In this document: one piece after another, positions 1,765 to 16,480 of the stretch
How positions within the stretch are numbered: the stretch's first letter is position 1
Layout of the letters: every line of letters starts with the position of its first letter
NCBI GenBank assembly: GCA_038851755.1
Contig: JAWCKR010000021.1
Span: 1 to 22,507, forward strand
Source: Candidatus Hadarchaeales archaeon
GTDB lineage: Archaea; Hadarchaeota; Hadarchaeia; Hadarchaeales; WYZ-LMO6
Length of the DNA: 22,507 nucleotides
Reading direction: 5' to 3'
Made by a program: the position numbers and the translations under genes
The notes under the pieces: generated by a model
Database searches by the model: none
Told to the model about the DNA's origin: nothing
What the model saw: the letters and a program-made list of their open reading frames with translations, nothing else

Positions 1765-4031
<2,267 letters not shown>

Positions 4032-4074
4032 AGCGTCGCTCGGGTACCCCGACGCTGGCGGTGCTCTCCCACCG
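4032..4074. other. Two adjacent stem-loops just after the nfnB stop (possible terminator or element end)
   Basis: AGCGTCG(4032-38)...GGGTACCC...CGACGCT(4050-56); CGGTG-CTCTCC-CACCG(4059-74). Confidence 0.45.
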
Positions 4075-4076
4075 AG

Positions 4077-4096
4077 GAAAGTATAAATGGTATACT
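4077..4096 (+). promoter_or_regulatory. BRE/TATA promoter of TA operon with overlapping palindromic operator
   Basis: GAAAAGTATAAAT about 25 nt before ATG 4111; AGTATA-AATGG-TATACT palindrome 4080-4096. Confidence 0.65.
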
Positions 4097-4110
4097 GAGA
4101 ATACCTGCTG

Positions 4111-4329
4111 ATGTCCGCCACCACGATAAAGGTGAGTTTGAAGACGAAGGAAACCCTGCGTTCCCTCGGCGAGAAGGGGATGTCGTATGACGAGATCATC
4201 CAGGAGGTCGTGGCGGGGTATCTGGCCCACGTTGAAGAGCTGCTCGAGAGGCTGAAGGAGTTCCCGAAGGGCAGGTCGCTCAAGGAGATAGTCGATGAGC
4301 TTGAGGGTCGTTCTCCACCCAGCCGCTGA
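4111..4329 (+). CDS. Antitoxin, ribbon-helix-helix type
   Basis: MSATTIKVSLKTKETLRSLG..GMSYDEII is the archaeal TTI.V...T...L..L....SYD..I RHH pattern; 72 aa, directly upstream of and overlapping a RelE-like gene. Confidence 0.75.
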   Translation: MSATTIKVSLKTKETLRSLGEKGMSYDEIIQEVVAGYLAHVEELLERLKEFPKGRSLKEIVDELEGRSPPSR

Positions 4330-4618
4330 GCGCGAGTTGAAGAAAATCCATAAGGAAAGGGAGAGCTTCCGGAGAATCGTTAAGGCAATCAGCGACTACG
4401 CCGAAACCGGAAGGGGAGACGTTAGGGTGGTGGCATCGGCGAAGAGGCAGGAAGAAACCCTGCTGGCCCTGAGGGTTGGTGAATGGAGAATCCACTTCGG
4501 TGTCATCGGTGACACGATGTACGTGGTGGGGATGGAAAGACGACCGAAGGCTTATCAACCCTGGGTCCTTGAGGTGGCGAGGCGCAGACTGAGGGAGCTT
4601 GGTGTCGAGCTGGGGTGA
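4295..4618 (+). CDS. RelE/ParE-family type II toxin
   Basis: VVLHPAAERELKKI...GRGDV...LRVGEWRIHF...RR..AY; 107 aa. Confidence 0.8.
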   Translation: MSLRVVLHPAAERELKKIHKERESFRRIVKAISDYAETGRGDVRVVASAKRQEETLLALRVGEWRIHFGVIGDTMYVVGMERRPKAYQPWVLEVARRRLRELGVELG

Positions 4619-4721
4619 GGCAGACCCTCGAGCCCCCCAGGTGCCTGAGAAAACACCAGCGGGAGTCAGTCACTCGTGGCTTGAACGAGGGCCGATGGGT
4701 GGACCCAACCTCCCAAGATAC

Positions 4722-4748
4722 TCGGACTGGGAGCCGGTCAACGCCTGA
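4722..4748 (+). repeat. Direct repeat copy 2 of nfnB 3' end
   Basis: TCGGACTGGGAGCCGGTCAACGCCTGA, reads SDWEPVNA* versus SDWKPVNA* of NfnB. Confidence 0.9.
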
Positions 4749-4782
4749 GGACCATCTTTTTAAATCCGGAGTGAAGAGCTGG

Positions 4783-5178
4783 ATGGGGGAAAGCTTGGGA
4801 CAGGTGCTGGCGAGCAGGTTGCGGGGCATGACCGTGGTGACGGACAGGGGGTTGAACCTGGGCAAACTCTCCGACCTGATTATGGACGAGAACACGGGTG
4901 CCATTCTCTCCCTGGTGGTGAAGCCCGCGGAGAAGGGACTGCTGGACAACCTCCCCAAGGACGACAGGGGGCTGCCCGTGATCGCCTACAGCTCCGTGAT
5001 CGCGATCAAGGAGCTCATCGTGGTGAACGAGAGGGTGCTGGCCATCCACCAGATGAAGGCCTCCGGGGCGGGCGTCTCCTTACCCAGCGCACCCGCACCG
5101 GCGGAGGCCACCACCGTTACCACCGCTCCACCTGCCGGCACGGGTCAGACGGGGTCCGCGGGGCAGGCTTCCTCCTGA
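4783..5178 (+). CDS. PRC-barrel domain protein (CdpB-like) with Ala/Pro/Thr-rich tail
   Basis: LASRLRGMTVVTDRGLNLGKLSDLIMDENTGAILSLVV...IAYSSVIAIKELIVV; TTTTTAAA at 4757-4764 favours start 4783 over 4615. Confidence 0.8.
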   Translation: MGESLGQVLASRLRGMTVVTDRGLNLGKLSDLIMDENTGAILSLVVKPAEKGLLDNLPKDDRGLPVIAYSSVIAIKELIVVNERVLAIHQMKASGAGVSLPSAPAPAEATTVTTAPPAGTGQTGSAGQASS

Positions 5179-5179
5179 G

Positions 5180-5869
5180 CTACCATCCCACGAACAGACG
5201 GGAGGCGAGTTCCGGGGGGAGTCCGGCTTTCCTTATCCCCTCCGCCGCTTCCTCGACGTCGTATTCCACCCTCCCGAACTCCGCCTCCACCTCCCCGTCC
5301 TCCACCTCCAGCACCAGGTAGCTGGCCCTGGGGTCCCTGTCCCTGGGCTGTCCCACCCCTCCCGGGTTCAGCACCAGCTTCCCCTGGATGAGCCGCCGCA
5401 TGGGGACATGGGTATGACCCAGCAAGATCACCTCCGCCTCGACCTTCCTCACCAGCTCCAGCAGGGAGTGCTGGGGGAGGTCGGGGAAGACGTACTCGAA
5501 GAGGGGGTCGCGTGGGGAGCCGTGCACCACGTAGAGCCTCACCCCCTCCCTGGTGAGCCTGAGTTCCTCGGGGAGGGAGCGCAGGTACTTCCGGTTGGGC
5601 TCCGTTAGCTGTTCCTTCGTCCAGAGGGCGGCCCTCCTGGCCGAGGGGTTGAACCACTCCACCTCCCCCGTGACGGCCGCGTAGTCGTGGTTCCCCATCA
5701 CCGCCGGAAGCCCCTTCGTGCGGAAGAGGTCCACCACCTCGTTGGGCTGGGAGGCGTAGCCCACCAGGTCTCCGGCGCAGAGGAGTTCGTCCACCCTTCC
5801 CATGTCCTCCAGCACCGCCCTCAGGGCAGGGAGGTTGGAGTGGATGTCCGAGATCACCCCGATCCTCAT
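5180..5869 (-). CDS. Metallophosphoesterase (calcineurin-like, YfcE/MJ0912 type)
   Basis: SDIHSN, GDLVGY, GNHD, HGSP, GHTH, NPGGVGQPRD; ATGA overlap with Elp3 stop. Confidence 0.9.
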   Translation of the reverse strand: MRIGVISDIHSNLPALRAVLEDMGRVDELLCAGDLVGYASQPNEVVDLFRTKGLPAVMGNHDYAAVTGEVEWFNPSARRAALWTKEQLTEPNRKYLRSLPEELRLTREGVRLYVVHGSPRDPLFEYVFPDLPQHSLLELVRKVEAEVILLGHTHVPMRRLIQGKLVLNPGGVGQPRDRDPRASYLVLEVEDGEVEAEFGRVEYDVEEAAEGIRKAGLPPELASRLFVGW

Positions 5870-7260
5870 CCTCCCACCTCCTTGCACATGTACGGTCCCT
5901 CCCTCCTGTACCCCAGCCTCCTGTAGTACTCCCTCACCCCTATCCCGGAGAGCACCGCCACCTTCTCCTTTCCCCTCTCCACCGCCAGGCGCTCGGCCTC
6001 TTCCAGCAGGGTCCTGCCCAACCCGCGGTGCTGCCAGGCCCCCTCTCCGGGTTTCTCCCCCACGGGCACCAGGGGGCCGTAGACATGGAGTTCCCTCACC
6101 ACGGCCGCCCCTTCCAGCTCCGGTCGATGGGCCCTTGGAGAGGGGAGCCTGAGCCTGAGGAGGGCCACGAGCACGTCCTTCTCCGGTGCCTCCCAGGAGA
6201 GGAAGACCTCCTCACCTCCCGAGGCCCTGTAGCTCCTCCTCACCAGCTCCAGTTCTTCGGGGCGCAGCTTCCCCCTGAAGCGTCCCACCTCCCTGCAGCG
6301 GATGCACCGGCAGCGCAGGCCCAGGGAGGCCATCCTCTGCTGGACCATGGCCCTGAGGTCGCCTCTCTCCGGACCGGCGGAGACCAGGTTCAGGGGGATG
6401 TCCCTCTGCACGCGCTGGATCCTTACCCAGGGGGGAACGAGGAGCTTGATCCTCAGGAGGAGGTCCAGCAGGGTCTCGGGGGGAAATGGCCGGTACTCGC
6501 CCCTTTCCCACCTCCTGTGTAGCTCCGTGCCAGGCAAGACCAGCGTGGGGTAGAGCTTCACGGCATCTGGCCTGAACCTTTCGTCCTCGAAGACCCTCCT
6601 GCACACCTCCAGGTCCTTTTCCGGATCGGAGCCTGGTAGGTTGAGCATCAGGTGGTATACCACGGCGAGTCCAGCGTCCCTGGCTACCCTCGTAGCCTCC
6701 TCCACCTCCTTCGCCCCGTGTTTTCTCCCCACCTCTGCCAGGACCCCTTCGTCGAGCGTCTGCACCCCCAGCTCCACCCTGGTGGCCCCCAGCTCCAGCA
6801 TCAGGTCCACGTGTTCTTCACGGCACCAGTCCGGCCTGGTCTCGAGCCCCAGGTCGCTCACCCTCACCCCTGCCACCTCCCCCTTGCCTTGCGCCTCTTC
6901 CAGGGTGGAGGAACGGGTACCCGCGAGGGCGTCCAGGCACTCCTTCACGAACCACCTCAGGTATTCCTCGGGGTAGGAAGTGAGGGTCCCGCCGAAGAGG
7001 AGGAGTTCCACCTTGTCCACCCTGTGCCCTATCTCCCTCAGCTGCTCCACCCTGCTCCTCACCTGCAGGTAGGGGTCGTACCCGTGCTGGAGGGCCCTGG
7101 CCGAGGCCGGTTCCTTCCCCGTGTAGGACTGTGGGACCCCCTGCTCCGGTCCGCCTGGGCAGTAGGCGCACCTCCCGTGGGGGCAGGGACGCGGCTCCAC
7201 CATCGCGGTGATCACGCACACCCCGCTCAGGCTGCGCACGGGTTTTTTCACCGCCTGCAT
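5866..7260 (-). CDS. elp3: Elp3 tRNA uridine(34) acetyltransferase (radical SAM plus GNAT)
   Basis: CPHGRCAYCPGGP, PQSYTGKEP, ETRPD, ELGVQT, RVQRDIP, CRCIRCRE, RELHVYG, QHRGLG, GVREYY. Confidence 0.95.
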   Translation of the reverse strand: MQAVKKPVRSLSGVCVITAMVEPRPCPHGRCAYCPGGPEQGVPQSYTGKEPASARALQHGYDPYLQVRSRVEQLREIGHRVDKVELLLFGGTLTSYPEEYLRWFVKECLDALAGTRSSTLEEAQGKGEVAGVRVSDLGLETRPDWCREEHVDLMLELGATRVELGVQTLDEGVLAEVGRKHGAKEVEEATRVARDAGLAVVYHLMLNLPGSDPEKDLEVCRRVFEDERFRPDAVKLYPTLVLPGTELHRRWERGEYRPFPPETLLDLLLRIKLLVPPWVRIQRVQRDIPLNLVSAGPERGDLRAMVQQRMASLGLRCRCIRCREVGRFRGKLRPEELELVRRSYRASGGEEVFLSWEAPEKDVLVALLRLRLPSPRAHRPELEGAAVVRELHVYGPLVPVGEKPGEGAWQHRGLGRTLLEEAERLAVERGKEKVAVLSGIGVREYYRRLGYRREGPYMCKEVGG

Positions 7261-7280
7261 CTCTCCACCTCTTTCCCCCG

Positions 7281-7290
7281 GAAATAAATC
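7281..7290. promoter_or_regulatory. Probable shared bidirectional TATA element for elp3 and hel308
   Basis: Only AT-rich tract (GAAATAAATC) in a 52-bp divergent gap, about 21-30 nt from both starts. Confidence 0.45.
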
Positions 7291-7312
7291 GTGGGGGGAA
7301 GAAAGGGGGGAG

Positions 7313-9478
7313 ATGAGGGTGAGGGAGGTCTGCGAGAGGTGGGGGATTCCACAGGTGGCGGAGGTGCTGGAGAAGGAGGGAATGGTTGCCCTCTATCCCC
7401 CCCAAGAGGAGGCCGTGAGGAAGGGGGTGATGGAGGGAAAGAGCCTGGTGCTGGCCGTTCCCACCGCAGGGGGGAAGACCCTGGCGGCGGAGCTGTGCAT
7501 GCTCCGCTCCATCTTGGTGGACGGGGGAAAGGCTCTATACATCGTGCCCCTGAGGGCGCTGGCCAGCGAAAAGTACGAGGAGTTCAGGGGGAGGTACGGT
7601 CCCCTCGGCGTGAAGGTGGGGATAAGCACGGGGGACTTCGACACCGCCGACACCAGGCTGGCCAGGTACGATCTGCTGGTGGCCACGTCTGAGAAGGTGG
7701 ACTCCCTCCTGAGACACAGGGCGAAGTGGCTGGCGGACGTGGTCTCGGTGGTGGTGCTGGATGAGGTGCACCTGATCAACGACCCGGACAGGGGACCCAC
7801 GCTGGAGGTCCTCACCGCCAGGCTCAGGCAGGTGAACCCGGGGGTGCAGGTGCTGGCCCTGAGCGCCACGGTGAGGAACGCGGAGGAGCTGGCGGAGTGG
7901 CTGGGGGCGGAGCTGGTGAGGAGCGACTGGAGACCGGTGCCCCTGAAGAGGGGGGTGTTCTGGCAGGGGAGGATCTTGTTTGAGGACGGGGGAAAGAGGG
8001 AGGTGGGTGAAGGAGAGGCCCTCACCGCCCTCACCCTGGACACCCTGAGGGAGGGAGGGCAGGTCCTGATTTTCGTGAACACCCGCAAGTCCGCCCAGAC
8101 CGTCGCCTCCTCTCTCTCCGAGAAGGTCGCCCCGCTGCTGAAGGAGGAGGAGAGGAGGGAGCTGGGTGAGGTGGCAGGGAGGGTGGAGGGGGCGCTGGGG
8201 GAGCCCACGAGGACCTGCAGGGAGCTGGCCAGGTGCGTCCGCGCGGGCACGGCCTTCCACCACGCGGGACTCCACCACGACCAGCGCAGGGCCGTGGAGG
8301 AAGCCTTCAGGGGGAACCTGCTGAAGGTGGTGTGCGCTACCCCTACGCTGGCGGCGGGAATGAATCTCCCCGCGCGTAGGGTGGTGGTGAGGGACTACAG
8401 GAGGTACTCGGAGACCTTTGGCTCCACCCTCATCCCCGTGCTTGAGATTCAGCAGATGATGGGGAGGGCGGGGAGGCCGAAGTACGATCGGTACGGGGAG
8501 GCGGTGATGGTGGCCAGGAGCGAGGGGGAGGTGGAGGTGCTCATGGAGGAGTACGTGAGGGGGGAGCCGGAGCGGCTGGTGTCGAAGCTGGGGACGGAGC
8601 CGGCCCTCCGCACGCACGTGCTCGCATGCGTGGCCTCAGGGTACGCGGCCACGGTGGGTGACGTGCTGGGGTTCATGGGAGGGACCTTCTTCTCCCACCA
8701 GTTCGAGGTGAGGGCCATGGAGGGTGTGGTGGAGAGGGTGCTGGACTTCCTGGAGGAGGAGGACATGGTGAGGAGGGAGGGGGAGAGGCTCACGGCCACC
8801 CCCTTCGGGGAGCTGGTCTCCCGCCTGTACGTCGACCCCCTCTCCGGGGTGGTCCTGAGGAGGGGACTGGAGGGAATCTCGAAGGGGGAACCGGCTCCGC
8901 TGGGCCTCCTGCACCTGATCTGCAGCACCCCGGACATGGAGAAGCTCTACCTGGGAAGGGGGGAGGAGGCGGAGTTCGAGGCCCTGACGGAGGAGAGGTG
9001 GAGGGAGTTTCTGTTGCCCATTCCCGAGGACCCGGAGGACTTCGAGTTCTTCCTGGCGGAGGTGAAGACGGCCAGGATGCTGGAGAGCTGGGTGGAGGAG
9101 GTCCACGAGGAGAGGATCCACGAGGAGTTCGGGGTGGGTGCGGGGGACATAAGGAGGATGGTGGAAACGGCGGCCTGGCTTCTGCACGCCGCCCACGAGC
9201 TAGCCAGGCTCCTGAGGGCGAGGAAGGCCCTTGCGCCCCTGAGGAAGCTGGAGGAGAGGGTGAGGTACGGGGTGAAAGAGGAACTGCTGGAGCTGGTGCA
9301 GCTGTCCGGGGTGGGGAGAGTGAGGGCCAGGAACCTGTGGAGGGCGGGGTACAGGAGGCTTGAGGACCTGAGGAGGGCGACGGTGGAGCAGCTGGCTTCC
9401 GTTCCCACCATAGGTCCCGAAACGGCGAAAAGTTTGAAGCGCCAGGTGGAGGAGGGAGCATGGAGGAGTGGGACCTGA
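7313..9478 (+). CDS. hel308: Ski2-like ATP-dependent DNA helicase Hel308/Hjm
   Basis: LYPPQ, PTAGGKT, PLRALA, DEVH, LSAT, HHAGL, TPTLAAGMNLPA, QMMGRAGRP, GVGRVRAR C-terminal HhH. Confidence 0.95.
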   Translation: MRVREVCERWGIPQVAEVLEKEGMVALYPPQEEAVRKGVMEGKSLVLAVPTAGGKTLAAELCMLRSILVDGGKALYIVPLRALASEKYEEFRGRYGPLGVKVGISTGDFDTADTRLARYDLLVATSEKVDSLLRHRAKWLADVVSVVVLDEVHLINDPDRGPTLEVLTARLRQVNPGVQVLALSATVRNAEELAEWLGAELVRSDWRPVPLKRGVFWQGRILFEDGGKREVGEGEALTALTLDTLREGGQVLIFVNTRKSAQTVASSLSEKVAPLLKEEERRELGEVAGRVEGALGEPTRTCRELARCVRAGTAFHHAGLHHDQRRAVEEAFRGNLLKVVCATPTLAAGMNLPARRVVVRDYRRYSETFGSTLIPVLEIQQMMGRAGRPKYDRYGEAVMVARSEGEVEVLMEEYVRGEPERLVSKLGTEPALRTHVLACVASGYAATVGDVLGFMGGTFFSHQFEVRAMEGVVERVLDFLEEEDMVRREGERLTATPFGELVSRLYVDPLSGVVLRRGLEGISKGEPAPLGLLHLICSTPDMEKLYLGRGEEAEFEALTEERWREFLLPIPEDPEDFEFFLAEVKTARMLESWVEEVHEERIHEEFGVGAGDIRRMVETAAWLLHAAHELARLLRARKALAPLRKLEERVRYGVKEELLELVQLSGVGRVRARNLWRAGYRRLEDLRRATVEQLASVPTIGPETAKSLKRQVEEGAWRSGT

Positions 9479-10402: not shown

Positions 10403-10490
10403 GCGGGGGTAGCCAAGCCAGGTCAAAGGCGCCAGATTCAGGGTCTGGTCCCGAAGGGGTTCGGGGGTTCAAATCCCCTCCCCCGCACCA
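10403..10490 (+). tRNA. tRNA-Leu (anticodon CAG), long variable arm, encoded CCA
   Basis: Acceptor GCGGGGG/CCCCCGC, anticodon arm CCAGA-TTCAGGG-TCTGG, T arm GGGGG-TTCAAAT-CCCCT, ends ACCA then TTTT. Confidence 0.95.
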
Positions 10491-10795: not shown

Positions 10796-11554
10796 ATGGG
10801 AAGGAGCTTGGTGATTCTCTCGGGTGTTCTCGTGGGTGTGGCCCTGGCCTTCTTGGCCTTCCAGCTTCTCAGCCAGGTCCTTCCCTACTTTCTCTACCAG
10901 CCTCCTCCCCTCCCCCCCACCGTCAGGGAGGAGAACGGCTACTACGTGGTCCACTACCAGTGGAGGTACCCGCAGGGTCTGAGGGGGAAGACCTGGACCT
11001 ACGACACCAGGATCAACGTGGAGGCGTACAAGTGGTTCAGGAACAGGCCCAGGGTCAGGGACTACAGGGAATACGTGGACAACCCGGCCGACGACCAGTG
11101 GATCTCCCACCTGGCGGGCCTGCTGGAGAACGCGGCCAGGGGGGAGGGATGGGGTGAGTTCGAGACCCTCAGCTTCGTCCTCTCCTTCGTGCAGGGCTGG
11201 CCCTACACCGTGGATGACGTCACCACCGGTTACGACGAGTATCCCCGTTATCCCATCGAGACCATCGTGGACGGGGGAGGGGACTGCGAGGACACCTCCA
11301 TCCTCTTCGCCTCCCTAGTGAGGGCCATGGGATACGACGTGGTACTCCTCTACCTGGAGCAGGACAGGCACATGGCCGTGGGCGTGGCCATCTCCCGGAG
11401 CGTGGTGGAGGGGTGGAACAAGAGCTATCCCCTCACCTACTATACCTCCAACGGGAAGATCTACGCCTACTGCGAGACCACCGGAGAGGGCTGGGAGCTG
11501 GGGCACAAGCCCGAGCAGCTGAAGAGCACCACCGCCCGTCTGGTGGAGGTCTGA
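10796..11554 (+). CDS. Membrane-anchored transglutaminase-like cysteine protease
   Basis: N-terminal TM helix, Pro linker, EYPRYPIET..DGGGDCEDTSILFASL, HMAVGV, YCETT. Confidence 0.8.
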   Translation: MGRSLVILSGVLVGVALAFLAFQLLSQVLPYFLYQPPPLPPTVREENGYYVVHYQWRYPQGLRGKTWTYDTRINVEAYKWFRNRPRVRDYREYVDNPADDQWISHLAGLLENAARGEGWGEFETLSFVLSFVQGWPYTVDDVTTGYDEYPRYPIETIVDGGGDCEDTSILFASLVRAMGYDVVLLYLEQDRHMAVGVAISRSVVEGWNKSYPLTYYTSNGKIYAYCETTGEGWELGHKPEQLKSTTARLVEV

Positions 11555-13662: not shown

Positions 13663-14526
13663 GTGCGACCGCCCGAGAGGATAACCCTGGTCTCCATAGC
13701 CCTCACCACGGGGCTGGGTCTGGTGGAGGTGGGTCTCTGGTCGGTCTTCGGCTTTCTCGTCTTCCTGGCAGCGGGACTCGACGCCCTCTTCGACACCTTC
13801 ACCTCCGTGTGCGTGTTCGGGGGCCTGAGGGTCTCCAGGCGCCCCGCCGACCGGAACCACCAGTACGGCCACGGGCAGGCGGAAATGCTGGTCTCCCTCC
13901 TCCTCTCCTGCGTCCTGATTTTGGCGGCCCTGAGGATCATCCTGCTTTCCCTGCGGGCTGGCGAGCCGGAGGAGCCACCGGTGTGGCTTTTCCCGGTGGC
14001 GGGTGCCACCGTTCCGGCTTTCCTGGTCCTGGGTGCCGGTAAGCTCAGGGTGGGGAGGAGGTGGGGGAACCCGTCGGTGGTGGCTGACGGCTACCACACC
14101 CTCTCCGACGCCCTGGCCTCCACGCTGGTCCTGGCAGCCCTGGTCTCGGTGAGGGCGGGCTGGGGGTGGATGGACGCCCTCGCTTCCTTCCTCATTTCCC
14201 TCCTCCTGATGTACTGGGGAGTCTGCGTGGGGAGGGAGGCGGTGGGTTCCCTGATGGGGGTGGCCCCCAAGGGCTTCGCCTCCGAGGTCAGGAGGGCCTG
14301 TTTGGGTGTGAGGGGGGTGAGGAGCTACCACCGCTGCAGGGCCAGGAGGGTGGGTTCCAGGATCCAGGCGGACCTCCACCTTCAGGTGGACCCCTCCCTG
14401 AGCGTGGGGAAAGCGCATGAAGTGGCGAGCAGGGTGGAGCGGAGGTTGAGGCGCAGGGTGCCCGAGCTCTCCTCCGTGGTGGTGCACGTGGAGCCCTCCA
14501 ACGAGAAACCGCGCAGGAGGAGGTGA
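13663..14526 (+). CDS. Cation diffusion facilitator (FieF-like) transporter
   Basis: DALFD, PAD.NHQYGHG..E, ADGYHTLSD, DLHLQVDP.LSV..AH, VVVHVEP. Confidence 0.92.
   Translation: MRPPERITLVSIALTTGLGLVEVGLWSVFGFLVFLAAGLDALFDTFTSVCVFGGLRVSRRPADRNHQYGHGQAEMLVSLLLSCVLILAALRIILLSLRAGEPEEPPVWLFPVAGATVPAFLVLGAGKLRVGRRWGNPSVVADGYHTLSDALASTLVLAALVSVRAGWGWMDALASFLISLLLMYWGVCVGREAVGSLMGVAPKGFASEVRRACLGVRGVRSYHRCRARRVGSRIQADLHLQVDPSLSVGKAHEVASRVERRLRRRVPELSSVVVHVEPSNEKPRRRR
14477..14507 (+). repeat. Direct repeat copy 1 (near 3' end of CDF gene)
   Basis: TGGTGGTGCACGTGGAGCCCTCCAACGAGAA, identical to 16039-16069. Confidence 0.95.
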
Positions 14527-14664
14527 GACCCTGGGCTCACAGGTCGGTTCGGGGGGAAGGAGTTCCTGGAGGGGTCCGTCGCACAGGAGGACAATCCCAC
14601 ACGTGCTTCAAGATACACCGGAAGCACTAGGCAAGCTGATTTCTAAGCTGGGGATATATCCTGG

Positions 14665-15921
14665 CTACTCCGTTTCTGACCGGAGGAGTTCCCTCTCGAG
14701 GGCATAGACAGGTACCACTTTGACCCTTCCGAAATCCTCTTCCCGCCCCCATGAGACGAGCAACCCCCTTCTTGCCCCCAGCCTTTCCACCCTTTCCGAG
14801 AACTCCTTCGCCTCCCTTTCCCCCGCGCTTTCCTTCACCTCCACGGGCAGCACTTCCCCGTTCGTCAGGATCACGTCTATCTCTTCCTTCCTCTCCCGGT
14901 AGTAGTACTTGGGCCTGAGAACCGAGACCACATAGGTTTCAAGAACCGCGCCAATCTTGGTTTCGAAATCCCTCCTTGAGCAGGCGAAGATCATGGAGGG
15001 TGTGGCTGGGTAGTACCGCTTGAGCTTCCTTGAACCCGAAAGGGAGGAGGTTCTGAAGTTCGAGAGGGATCTAACCAGCAGGGAGAGCTCGAGGAAGCGG
15101 AGGTAGTGGGAGATGGTGACCCTGCTCCTTCCAAGGTCTCTCGAGAGATTGTTCACGTTGATGGTCAGTCCGGGGGAGGAGAGGACGAGCCTGAGCAGTT
15201 GCTCGGCCAAGACGGCGTCTCTCCCTCCCGAGAGGAGGGGAAGGTCGCGGAACACTACCCTGTCCACCACCGAGCTCCTCACGTACTCGGCAATCCTGTT
15301 CTCGTCCTCCCAGCCCGCCAGCTCTGGAAAGCCGGACTTCCTCAGGTAATCCTGAAAATAGGCCTCCACCCTCCTCTGCTCGGTCGTCTGCAGCCCCCTG
15401 AGTTCAAGAAACTCCGAGAAGAGAAGGGGCCCGAGCTCGACGGTGAAGAACCTCCCCGCCAGCTTTTCCATCGCCTCCTTCGAAAGCGGCAGGGCGGAGG
15501 AGCCGGAGAGGATGAACTTCAGGTTTGGGTAAAGATCGTAGAAGCGCTTGACGGTCGAGGCCCAGCCCGGCGCGTACTGCACCTCGTCCAGGAAGATGTA
15601 AACCCTTCCCGCCTCCTCGAAGGGTTTCGCGAGGATCCTCTTCTCGTAAAATCCCAGAACCTCAGCAGGGTCCCTGAACTCTTCGTCGAAGGAGAAGTAC
15701 AGGATGTTGGAAGGCGGGACCTTCTCCAGCAGCCCCTCTATCGTCTGGTAGAGAAGCGTGCTCTTCCCAACCCTCCTGGGTCCGACCAGGAGGAGGGCCT
15801 GCCTTTCCCGCAGGGTCCCTGCCAGCCTTTTGAACGCATACCTTTTGAAGGGCGGGGCCAGTTCTTTCCTAACCTTTCCCGTGAACCACCACTCGTTGAA
15901 CCTCTCTAAGGTTTCTTTCAC
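14665..15921 (-). CDS. AAA_14 ATPase with DUF4143, HTH and C-terminal PD-(D/E)xK nuclease-like domain
   Basis: N-terminal NEWW, Walker A GPRRVGKS, Walker B IFLDEVQ, SGSS, GFPE, KLKRYY, EIDVI...PVEVK. Confidence 0.9.
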   Translation of the reverse strand: MKETLERFNEWWFTGKVRKELAPPFKRYAFKRLAGTLRERQALLLVGPRRVGKSTLLYQTIEGLLEKVPPSNILYFSFDEEFRDPAEVLGFYEKRILAKPFEEAGRVYIFLDEVQYAPGWASTVKRFYDLYPNLKFILSGSSALPLSKEAMEKLAGRFFTVELGPLLFSEFLELRGLQTTEQRRVEAYFQDYLRKSGFPELAGWEDENRIAEYVRSSVVDRVVFRDLPLLSGGRDAVLAEQLLRLVLSSPGLTINVNNLSRDLGRSRVTISHYLRFLELSLLVRSLSNFRTSSLSGSRKLKRYYPATPSMIFACSRRDFETKIGAVLETYVVSVLRPKYYYRERKEEIDVILTNGEVLPVEVKESAGEREAKEFSERVERLGARRGLLVSWGREEDFGRVKVVPVYALERELLRSETE

Positions 15922-15951
15922 ATTGGTATAGTAGAATTAACCAATATTTAA
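15922..15951 (-). promoter_or_regulatory. Promoter of AAA_14 gene with inverted repeat between TATA and start
   Basis: Minus-strand TTAAATA at 15951-15945; ATTGGT(15922-27)...ACCAAT(15940-45). Confidence 0.5.
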
Positions 15952-16038
15952 CTTTTAGGTTAAGTGAAGAAGAAATAGTGGGAGTCGTGAGAGGCGAAGG
16001 GGCAGGATGAATTTTCTAAAGGGGAGGGCAGAGTAACA

Positions 16039-16069
16039 TGGTGGTGCACGTGGAGCCCTCCAACGAGAA
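16039..16069 (+). repeat. Direct repeat copy 2 of CDF 3' end
   Basis: Identical 31-mer; continues in the CDF frame as VVHVEPSNEKRGGRKG* with stop at 16089-16091. Confidence 0.95.
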
Positions 16070-16087
16070 GCGCGGGGGGAGAAAGGG

Positions 16088-16480
16088 ATGAGGTTCAGCG
16101 GGAAGGAAAGGGAGTTCCTCGAAAGGAACGAGGTCTGCAGGCTCGCCACCGCCGGGAGGGACGGCCTTCCCCACGTGGTGCCCGTCTGCTACCTCTTCCG
16201 CGGCGGAACCTTCTATGTGGCCACCGACTACGGGACGAGGAAGTACAGGAACGTGAGGGAGAACCCCAGGGCGGCGCTGGTGGTGGACACCTACAGGCCT
16301 CACCGGGCCGTGGTCGTGTGGGGCAGGGTGGAGGTGCTGGAGAGGGGGGAGGAGTTCAGGAGGATCAGGGAGGAGTTCTACCGGAGGTTCGACTGGGCGA
16401 GGAAGGATCCGTGGGAGGAGGGGGAGGCACCCATCCTGAAGCTCGTTCCGGAGAGGAAGGTGAGCTGGGGTCTGGGCTAG
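16088..16480 (+). CDS. Pyridoxamine 5'-phosphate oxidase-like (PPOX/F420-binding split barrel) protein
   Basis: CRLAT...G.PHVVPV, TRKYRNVRENPRAALVVD, VVVWGRVE, SWGL. Confidence 0.88.
   Translation: MRFSGKEREFLERNEVCRLATAGRDGLPHVVPVCYLFRGGTFYVATDYGTRKYRNVRENPRAALVVDTYRPHRAVVVWGRVEVLERGEEFRRIREEFYRRFDWARKDPWEEGEAPILKLVPERKVSWGLG

Follow-up and report, generated by a model that had tools for sequence, protein, structure and literature searches.

In this study, we analysed a 22,507-nt stretch of DNA from a Candidatus Hadarchaeales archaeon of hot-spring type (contig JAWCKR010000021.1, hereafter the window) and found that a segment of about 1.5 kb was, on sequence comparison, very likely inserted into a formerly coupled pair of genes. 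The pair consists of a cation-efflux gene of the CDF superfamily and a PPOX-class oxidoreductase gene, and the only gene of the insert encodes an AAA_14-DUF4143 ATPase, a candidate defence protein of the PDC-S01 type. The explanation that we favour for the locus as a whole, with a probability of roughly 0.55, is that a PDC-S01 gene was inserted as cargo by att-like recombination carried out in trans.

The insert is bounded by a direct repeat. An earlier note on this DNA had reported a perfect 31-bp repeat at 14477-14507 and 16039-16069, and both exact and mismatch-tolerant searches bear this out. The 31-mer TGGTGGTGCACGTGGAGCCCTCCAACGAGAA is present in exactly two copies, both on the + strand, which are 31/31 identical and spaced 1,562 bp apart, and it is the longest exact repeat of the window. 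No further copy was found in the window with up to 3 mismatches allowed, and none of the dinucleotide shuffles gave a match (0/100). The edges of the repeat are sharp: the upstream copy is preceded by G and followed by A, and the downstream copy is preceded by A and followed by G. At 0.57, the GC content of the insert is below the window mean of 0.634.

The upstream copy lies in the end of the CDF gene, which now reads ...VVHVEPSNEKPRRRR (NEKPRRRR), as translation confirms. The reading frame is open to PRRRR* and both Pfam domains are complete (Cation_efflux, 4e-31; ZT_dimer, 2.6e-22; NCBIfam CDF superfamily, 3.1e-61), so that function is predicted to be retained. Residues H275, V276, E277, P278 and S279 are invariant in 8/8 closest CDFs. 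The stop codon comes 5 codons past the repeat, and a stop so early is expected at 11-13% of random positions.

The downstream copy continues in the CDF frame and reads ...VVHVEPSNEKRGGRKG (NEKRGGRKG). Its TGA (16089-16091) overlaps the ATG of the PPOX gene (16088-16090) as ATGA (16088-16091), exactly as the earlier note had described. The PPOX gene is intact and also matches NCBIfam TIGR03618 at 5.2e-21, a score under the cut-off of that model. At the right junction, an ATG at 16038 is made up of the last base of the insert and the first two bases of the repeat, and the displaced CDF tail is therefore now a 17-codon mini-ORF (open reading frame). The gene annotations of the earlier note agree with Pfam (Cation_efflux and ZT_dimer; AAA_14 and DUF4143; PNPOx_N). 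Its statement that such coupling is used throughout the window holds in part: among five gene junctions checked, two other 4-bp overlaps are present (2592-2595 and 4615-4618), and both are GTGA.

The nearest CDF homologues give indirect evidence for the ancestral state. Seven were compared (P0003-P0009, 99-68% identity). The relatives at 90% and 89% identity (P0004 and P0006) end in ...GGRRGKG and ...RGGRKR, which resemble the displaced tail RGGRKG and not PRRRR. The closest homologue, P0003, is a 99%-identical CDF from an independent record and carries a tail of the replacement type. Compared with the whole window CDF, it shows only two differences, E to Q in the repeat-encoded part and R to G in the PRRRR part, and both fall within the last 8 residues (14503-14526; chance by position, 7e-4). 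The new CDF tail is therefore real in a second record, and it seems unconstrained.

CDF and PPOX homologues were found on contigs of the same size in 2/7 nearest relatives, namely P0004/P0246 (10,316 bp) and P0005/P0249 (2,992 bp). The ATPase was searched for in a collection of 5.8 billion proteins, and the results given here concern the best 120 of 591 matches. Among these, none lies on contigs of 10,316 or 2,992 bp, and none has an identity between 62 and 99%, apart from which there is one 100% self match. The best non-self match is 61% identical, compared with 83-92% identity for the sampled CDF and PPOX relatives; among the matches listed, those relatives therefore show no orthologous ATPase. 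The nearest ATPase relatives are 55-61% identical and are spread across at least 7 other archaeal lineages, other phyla included, which marks the gene as foreign in character. The earlier proposal of a coupled ancestral CDF-PPOX pair, into which a 1.5-kb insert brought a new C-terminus, is thus supported by the anatomy directly and by relatives indirectly.

These data bear on two other explanations of the repeat. The first assumes no insertion: the ATPase gene would always have been between CDF and PPOX, and the repeat would stem from a later local duplication or gene conversion. Such a history fits the near host-like codon use of the ATPase gene. However, the ATGA that closes the displaced tail still overlaps the PPOX start, one relative has CDF and PPOX on a single 2,992-bp contig, no ATPase above 61% identity appears among the matches listed despite CDF and PPOX relatives at 83-92%, and the nearest ATPase relatives belong to other phyla. 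We regard this history as very improbable.

The second explanation is an assembly artefact, in which an uninterrupted CDF-PPOX chromosome and a separate 1,562-bp circle or tandem array were threaded together via their shared 31-mer. The length of 31 is a common assembler k-mer size, and a single shared 31-mer gives a two-in, two-out ambiguity. On the other hand, the independent record P0003 likewise encodes a full-length CDF that runs into this kind of replacement tail, with two substitutions, and an identical ATPase lies on a 5,109-bp contig, which is longer than the putative circle. An artefact would also still require a real small replicon with 31 bp in common with the CDF end, in other words an attP/attB pair. 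We consider it improbable that the locus was produced in this way. The features of the locus are listed in Table 1.

Table 1. Features of the insert and of the two genes that flank it (window coordinates)
Feature	Position	Strand	Description
CDF cation-efflux gene, present form, 287 aa	13663..14526	+	Last 6 codons and stop are insert-derived
Upstream 31-bp repeat copy, attL-like	14477..14507	+	Encodes (V)VHVEPSNE(K), including the invariant HVEPS end of CDF
Inserted segment	14508..16038	.	1,531 bp; 1,562 bp with one repeat copy; bounded by the repeat
CDF replacement tail	14508..14526	+	Third base of K, then PRRRR and stop; read from the left end of the insert
Left non-coding part of insert	14527..14664	.	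Without homologue when tested as 14508-14664
AAA_14-DUF4143 ATPase, 418 aa, PDC-S01-type candidate defence protein	14665..15921	-	Pfam, PADLOC, conservation, models
Conserved promoter/operator block of the ATPase gene	15922..15966	-	Palindrome around the TTAAATAT box and third half-site abutting the GTG start
Right non-coding part of insert	15967..16038	.	GGAGG-like stretch about 10 nt before the junction ATG
Mini-ORF, 17 codons, MVVHVEPSNEKRGGRKG*	16038..16091	+	Junction-made ATG, then displaced ancestral CDF end
Downstream 31-bp repeat copy, attR-like	16039..16069	+	Exact-repeat search
PPOX-class oxidoreductase, probably F420/FMN-dependent, intact	16088..16480	+	Pfam PNPOx_N, 1.8e-22

The ATPase was examined for its domains and probable function. 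It matches Pfam AAA_14 (PF13173, 2.9e-35, residues 40-172) and DUF4143 (PF13635, 1.2e-17), and seven PDC-S01 models of PADLOC, the best at 1.4e-58 and 196.8 bits over residues 26-405 of 418. PHROGs gave no match. Walker A residues G47, K53 and T55, Walker B residues D112 and E113, and R157 are invariant in 31/31 aligned homologues. The nuclease-type residues E328, E347, E361 and K363 are likewise invariant in 31/31; at position 349, 16 of these proteins have D and 15 have N. The middle part of the protein is helical and weakly resembles a helix-turn-helix (HTH).

The full-length structural model had a mean pLDDT of 81.7 and a pTM of 0.82. Its nearest solved folds are the archaeal AAA+ proteins SSO1545 and PAB2304, the STAND NTPase Avs5, clamp loaders, RuvB and Orc (E 1e-7 to 1e-5). 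The C-terminal domain, modelled alone with a pLDDT of 71.9, is built of a helix, three strands, a helix and a strand, and its nearest folds are Can2, Cdn1, DdmD, restriction endonucleases, Hjc and NucS, all at E 2e-3 or weaker. No transposition ATPase and no TnsA-type nuclease was present among the fold neighbours listed. A sequence search of solved structures with the single protein gave 0 matches, and a profile gave only a weak match to 2qen (E 0.005). Taken together, the models suggest that the ATPase is most likely a sensor driven by nucleoside triphosphates with a nuclease effector, among other possible roles. The PD-(D/E)xK domain that the earlier note had assigned to this family agrees with the invariant residues E328, E347, E361 and K363 and with the fold matches, and the HTH that it had also assigned corresponds to the weakly HTH-like middle part.

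The family is known as a candidate defence system. According to the literature, PDC-S01 is an ATPase fused to a PD-(D/E)xK domain and ranks fourth among candidate defence systems of prokaryotes by abundance (PMC12988326). The same source gives 9,986 archaeal instances, with enrichment in archaea, repeated inter-domain transfers and validation pending (PMC12988326). DUF4143 is listed in the PD-(D/E)xK clan with function unknown (excerpt of PMC3424549), and COG1373, the cluster that corresponds to AAA_14-DUF4143 proteins, is listed among genes co-shared between gut genera (excerpt of PMC10782964). The window protein matches the PADLOC models and both Pfam domains, and on this basis a defence role is a candidate role only. 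The conserved promoter/operator block described below and the insertion scar are features of the window locus, and the excerpts of the literature on PDC-S01, DUF4143 and COG1373 hold no account of either, nor of self-mobility.

To determine which DNA is shared between members of the family, species-representative genomes, the source genome not being among them, were scanned, and 18 loci (L001-L018) were obtained. Of these, 17 were returned for relatives at 52-65% identity, and L018 was returned for a 22% paralogue, with a decayed close copy elsewhere in that locus. The loci come from metagenome-assembled genomes of Bathyarchaeia, Nitrososphaeria, Caldarchaeum, Micrarchaeales, Culexmicrobium and Thermoprotei. 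With 99.7% identity over 2,160 nt, L003 and L004 represent the same locus.

In all 19 sequences (18 loci and the window), we identified a block of about 45 nt that adjoins the start codon on its upstream side, so that it is conserved across archaeal phyla. In this block, a palindrome of the form TACCWAAA...TWWGGTA surrounds a TTTAAATA box, and a third TACC half-site comes next and touches the ATG or GTG. The strict palindrome pattern has an exact match in 5/20 loci. In the window, it has a single match (15939-15961, with 3 mismatches; shuffles 0/100), and no second operator-like site was found there. In an all-versus-all blastn comparison, DNA homology between loci starts at the block and stops at the stop codon, and the flanks are unrelated. 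Between L008 and L017, for instance, 87% identity extends over 1,311 nt and ends 2 nt past the stop. No conserved 3' flank of the ATPase gene was found among the loci compared. Because homology is confined to the block and the ORF, the travelling unit is promoter plus ORF. From the position of the block, we infer that the gene is leaderless and probably autoregulated via the palindrome, and the palindromic block offers a concrete DNA site with which to probe the HTH domain of the protein.

Decayed copies of the ATPase gene were found in L012 (about 5001-6257), L017 (4998-6263) and L018 (about 6550-6700), and all of them keep the upstream block. Their modes of decay are loss of the start, frameshifts into four ORF pieces, and internal deletion.

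The flanks of the related loci were searched for a repeat like that of the window. For each locus, the longest exact match and the best blastn match of the two flanks (600-800 bp) were set against those obtained when the same arrangement was moved along the locus. The test took in the 15 loci with both flanks; L007, L010 and L016 were excluded because the gene is cut by the contig end. L002 offered no null windows and L011 only one, and the coordinates used for L018 are those of the 22% paralogue. The window repeat (31 bp, 60.3 bits) clearly exceeds its null maximum of 27.6. Among the 15 related loci, only L006 rises above the null (55 bp, 87%, 60.3 bits against a null maximum of 21.8). The idea that direct repeats flank other DUF4143 genes as well was therefore not borne out in these loci, with a repeat at 1/15 and a different anatomy at that one.

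The repeat of L006 (2705-2758 / 4750-4804) is followed by patchy similarity to about +370 bp. Between its copies lie the ATPase homologue and, on either side of it, 438 bp of upstream and 333 bp of downstream DNA; the enclosed DNA includes the C-terminal end of an enolase-superfamily gene (MR_MLE_C, E 8e-4). The repeat is absent elsewhere in the loci, and the ORFs that cross it match no family. It may be an older, decayed scar of a second insertion.

The insert bears no marks of a transposon. Terminal inverted repeats are absent, as the two ends match at 4/40 positions. In a search for arm-type motifs and shared k-mers at the ends, the longest were 7 nt (direct) and 6 nt (inverted), lengths that were equalled in about 70% of 1,000 shuffles. 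No recombinase was found among the window ORFs by Pfam (28 ORFs), PHROGs (10) or NCBIfam (10).

In the reading that we favour, the target would have been a translationally coupled CDF-PPOX pair in a Hadarchaeales archaeon, and a 1.53-kb segment would have entered the CDF gene within its final codons. The structure would be accounted for if a small DNA circle had carried the same 31-mer as the chromosome and the two had been joined there by a single crossover (att-like, Campbell-type), carried out in trans by a recombinase or by homologous recombination encoded elsewhere. Such a crossover would duplicate 31 bp of the target. The left end of the insert would then give CDF a five-residue basic tail and a stop, whereas the right junction would make an ATG, with the old tail persisting as a mini-ORF that overlaps the PPOX start. 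With a new CDF end and a retained tail, both neighbours would stay intact. The product would be a mini-element without an integrase, similar to a cis-mobilisable element (CIME), and maybe the remnant of a larger element. Its protein would probably repress its own leaderless promoter through the palindrome.

The att-like character of the event is favoured because the repeat covers the invariant HVEPS residues, because CDF is closed after 5 codons, and because the length of the repeat suits att cores. A 31-bp repeat fits att cores better than the target duplications of transposases. A conserved target combined with prompt closure of the gene is typical of elements that insert at gene 3' ends. 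The favoured explanation as a whole is further supported by the failure to find a recombinase among the tested window ORFs, by the low GC content of the insert, by the cataloguing of the family as an 'embedded' candidate defence gene, and by the fold neighbours, which are sensor ATPases and defence nucleases.

The composition of the gene is relevant to its source. Its GC content at third codon positions (GC3) is 0.79, the lowest of 17 window genes (range of the others, 0.80-0.92), and that of its homologues is 0.09-0.62, following the GC content of their own loci. Its codon use is near host-like (rank 11 of 18 in distance from the pool), and AGG makes up 71% of its Arg codons. Either the donor would be a GC-rich lineage that has not been sampled, or the cassette would have moved inside the host's own lineage.

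Several points weigh against insertion by att-like recombination in trans. Neither an integrase nor a circle nor a second att-bearing molecule is in evidence, and arm-type repeats were not found beside the 31-mer, which by eye is not an obvious two-armed recombinase site. Empty-site DNA is not in evidence either; the ancestral coupled junction is deduced from the tails and the shared contigs, and for 5/7 nearest CDF homologues no matching PPOX contig was found. As judged from codon counts, host-like codon use is a poor match for a recent transfer from the AT-rich lineages in which the nearest known relatives occur. Finally, the 31-bp duplication could equally come from a staggered break.

This last point leads to a serious, although less probable, rival history: a one-off illegitimate insertion that used no att site. 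Either a 31-nt staggered break was filled around captured DNA, or replication switched template and returned 31 nt upstream; either way, the target would be duplicated. Such an event agrees with the 157 bp and 72 bp of unconserved DNA that extend beyond the shared unit, like a randomly cut donor fragment, with the failure to find a recombinase, arm motifs or terminal inverted repeats, and with the missing flanking repeat in 14/15 related loci. From the alignments, the position of the non-coding ends outside the shared unit is what one expects of a donor fragment and not of an element with defined ends. However, a one-off event needs a coincidence of three features, namely a repeat on the most conserved end of CDF, closure within 5 codons (11-13%) and an ATG made at the junction. 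A duplication of 31 bp is also long for known staggered-cut enzymes.

The earlier note had also suggested that AAA_14-DUF4143 genes are mobile, possibly self-mobilising. The first part stands in the form of horizontal mobility as a unit of promoter plus ORF. The second would mean that the ATPase protein itself mobilises the cassette as an autonomous mini-element, with its HTH binding the element and its PD-(D/E)xK domain cutting the target. Several observations are in keeping with this. The P-loop is intact, the nuclease-type residues are conserved and the middle part is weakly HTH-like; the ATPase gene is the only gene of the insert; the family is patchy across phyla with a sharp-edged unit of homology; and L006 carries a diverged flanking repeat (55 bp, 87%). 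Old insertions would also lose their repeats, which makes the 14 negative loci weak evidence.

The evidence on the other side is broader. Terminal inverted repeats (4/40) and shared end motifs are absent, conservation in cis is confined to a single element at one end, of which the window has one copy, and no conserved 3' end travels with the gene. Among the best 120 of 591 matches, nothing lies at 62-99% identity, so that near-identical copies are lacking, and the decayed copies stay in place in L012, L017 and L018. In the fold comparison, the neighbours listed belong to STAND/AAA+ sensors, clamp loaders, RuvB, Orc and defence nucleases, for example Can2 and DdmD. The only other repeat, that of L006, differs in anatomy and also encloses a fragment of another gene. 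On these grounds, self-mobilisation was not upheld and we judge it unlikely to a high degree; we read the ATPase gene as cargo and not as the mobilising agent.

A general form of the same idea, which we would likewise give little credence, holds that PDC-S01 genes are minimal self-inserting cassettes whose protein recognises the 5' palindrome and cuts the target about 31 nt apart. If this were true, it would explain both the spread across phyla and the embedding inside operons, and the window would hold the first fresh insertion with an intact target duplication, with L006 as an older one. If the gene is passive cargo only, the locus is a tidy but ordinary mini-island without an integrase, notable for how little it disturbs its neighbours.

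The neighbourhoods of the related loci were examined by annotating 115 ORFs within 3 kb in 17 loci; seven ORFs that fall within ATPase genes or pseudogenes were left out. Toxin-antitoxin modules are abundant there (PIN, MazE, HEPN/nucleotidyltransferase, UPF0175). No integrase was present among the 115 ORFs. Additional AAA_14-DUF4143 paralogues are common: L003, L005, L010 and L017 have two genes each and L014 has three, which lie within 5.4 kb (2962-8315) beside Cas6. Other neighbours include an IS1 transposase (L009), a TnpB fragment (L012), an McrB-like ATPase (L015) and plain housekeeping genes.

Two syntenic Bathyarchaeia loci, L010 and L017, differ just upstream of the ATPase gene, and we considered L010 334-2756 and L017 4627-4898 as a filled and an empty site. 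This pair was rejected, as the difference is a replacement (2,423 nt against 272 nt) whose edges carry no repeat. The 2,423 nt of L010 hold another AAA_14 gene and MazE-like genes.

Distant family members also occur on plasmids. They are common on Acinetobacter plasmids (172 of 345 plasmid records). An analogy with the modules of these plasmids was tried on one copy (L019) and rejected: there is no pair of flanking sites around the plasmid copy, only an unrelated 370-bp stretch is shared with other plasmids, and module boundaries could not be mapped. A 30%-identical family member was seen at 4989-6269 of L020, the Methanomethylovorans hollandica plasmid pMETHO01. A viperin gene and the nearer of two insertion sequence (IS) transposases each lie about 1.8 kb away from it, a setting that resembles a defence island.

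The locus joins two known kinds of arrangement, att-flanked elements without an integrase and embedded defence genes. PDC candidates were chosen as genes 'embedded' between genes of BREX, DISARM or type I restriction-modification loci, and the excerpts of that study leave the mechanism of embedding open, with a 'genomic sink' idea only (10.1101/2024.01.29.577857). The window gene is similar in that it sits between two formerly coupled genes. It is different in that the products of the host pair are a transporter and an oxidoreductase, that it lies on the opposite strand, and that the junctions are kept. Since the locus keeps both junctions of one embedding event perfect, the mechanism of embedding becomes testable.

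A CIME is described, in an excerpt on such elements, as an element that lacks integration genes but keeps attL and attR (PMC5704250). The window insert resembles CIMEs and other elements of gene 3' ends in its flanking direct repeats, in the use of a gene 3' end as target and in the substitute end that it supplies. CIMEs are described in bacteria and derive from integrative and conjugative or integrative and mobilisable elements (ICE/IME), whereas the window element is archaeal, 1.5 kb long and with one gene, and has no sign of lost genes and no known cognate integrase.

With transposons, IS elements and casposons, the insert shares a target duplication that flanks the inserted segment. In contrast to them, it has no transposase, no Cas1, no terminal inverted repeats and, among the matches listed, no multiple copies. 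A duplication of 31 bp also exceeds the target duplications known for transposons, insertion sequences and casposons.

Acinetobacter pdif modules, Xer-dependent elements and integron cassettes are units of one or a few genes that lack their own recombinase and are bounded by short sites, and the window insert may be likened to them by analogy. However, the window 31-mer lacks two-armed symmetry, and no pair of flanking sites was found around the one plasmid copy examined (L019). Unlike integron cassettes, the window gene brings its own promoter.

The non-coding ends of the insert were compared with other DNA. The 157-bp left end (14508-14664) has no homologue in the window or in the 18 related loci, and the 72-bp right end shows nothing in the related loci past chance 12-13-mers. 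We considered whether part of the left end (14508-14600) is a diverged copy of the PPOX start (RFGGKE..FLE against RFSGKEREFLE) and rejected this. Such a copy is absent from the 8 best blastn matches of 14508-14664 against the window (all E 0.09-0.27), and its local alignment score of 12 is equalled in 12% of 4,423 random windows; a MAFFT alignment was uninformative. A scan of 14300-16300 for promoters and terminators of bacterial type, a model unsuited to archaea, gave nothing useful.

The CDF stop sits within AGGAGGAGGTGA (14515-14526), where a ribosome-binding-like stretch and a GTGA overlap resemble the native junctions at 2592 and 4615. A 35-codon ORF begins at the GTG of AGGAGGAGGTGA, and its significance could not be shown.

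In a search of the window and L006 with Rfam at gathering thresholds, the sole match was a tRNA at 10403-10487. This corresponds to a tRNA-Leu(CAG) at 10403-10490, which is followed by a 252-aa ORF (10796-11554) without a Pfam, PHROGs or NCBIfam match. Elsewhere in the window, a small ORF at 4295-4618 has a weak RelE-like match (PHROG, 1.5e-5) and overlaps a PRC-barrel ORF (4615-5178) by GTGA.

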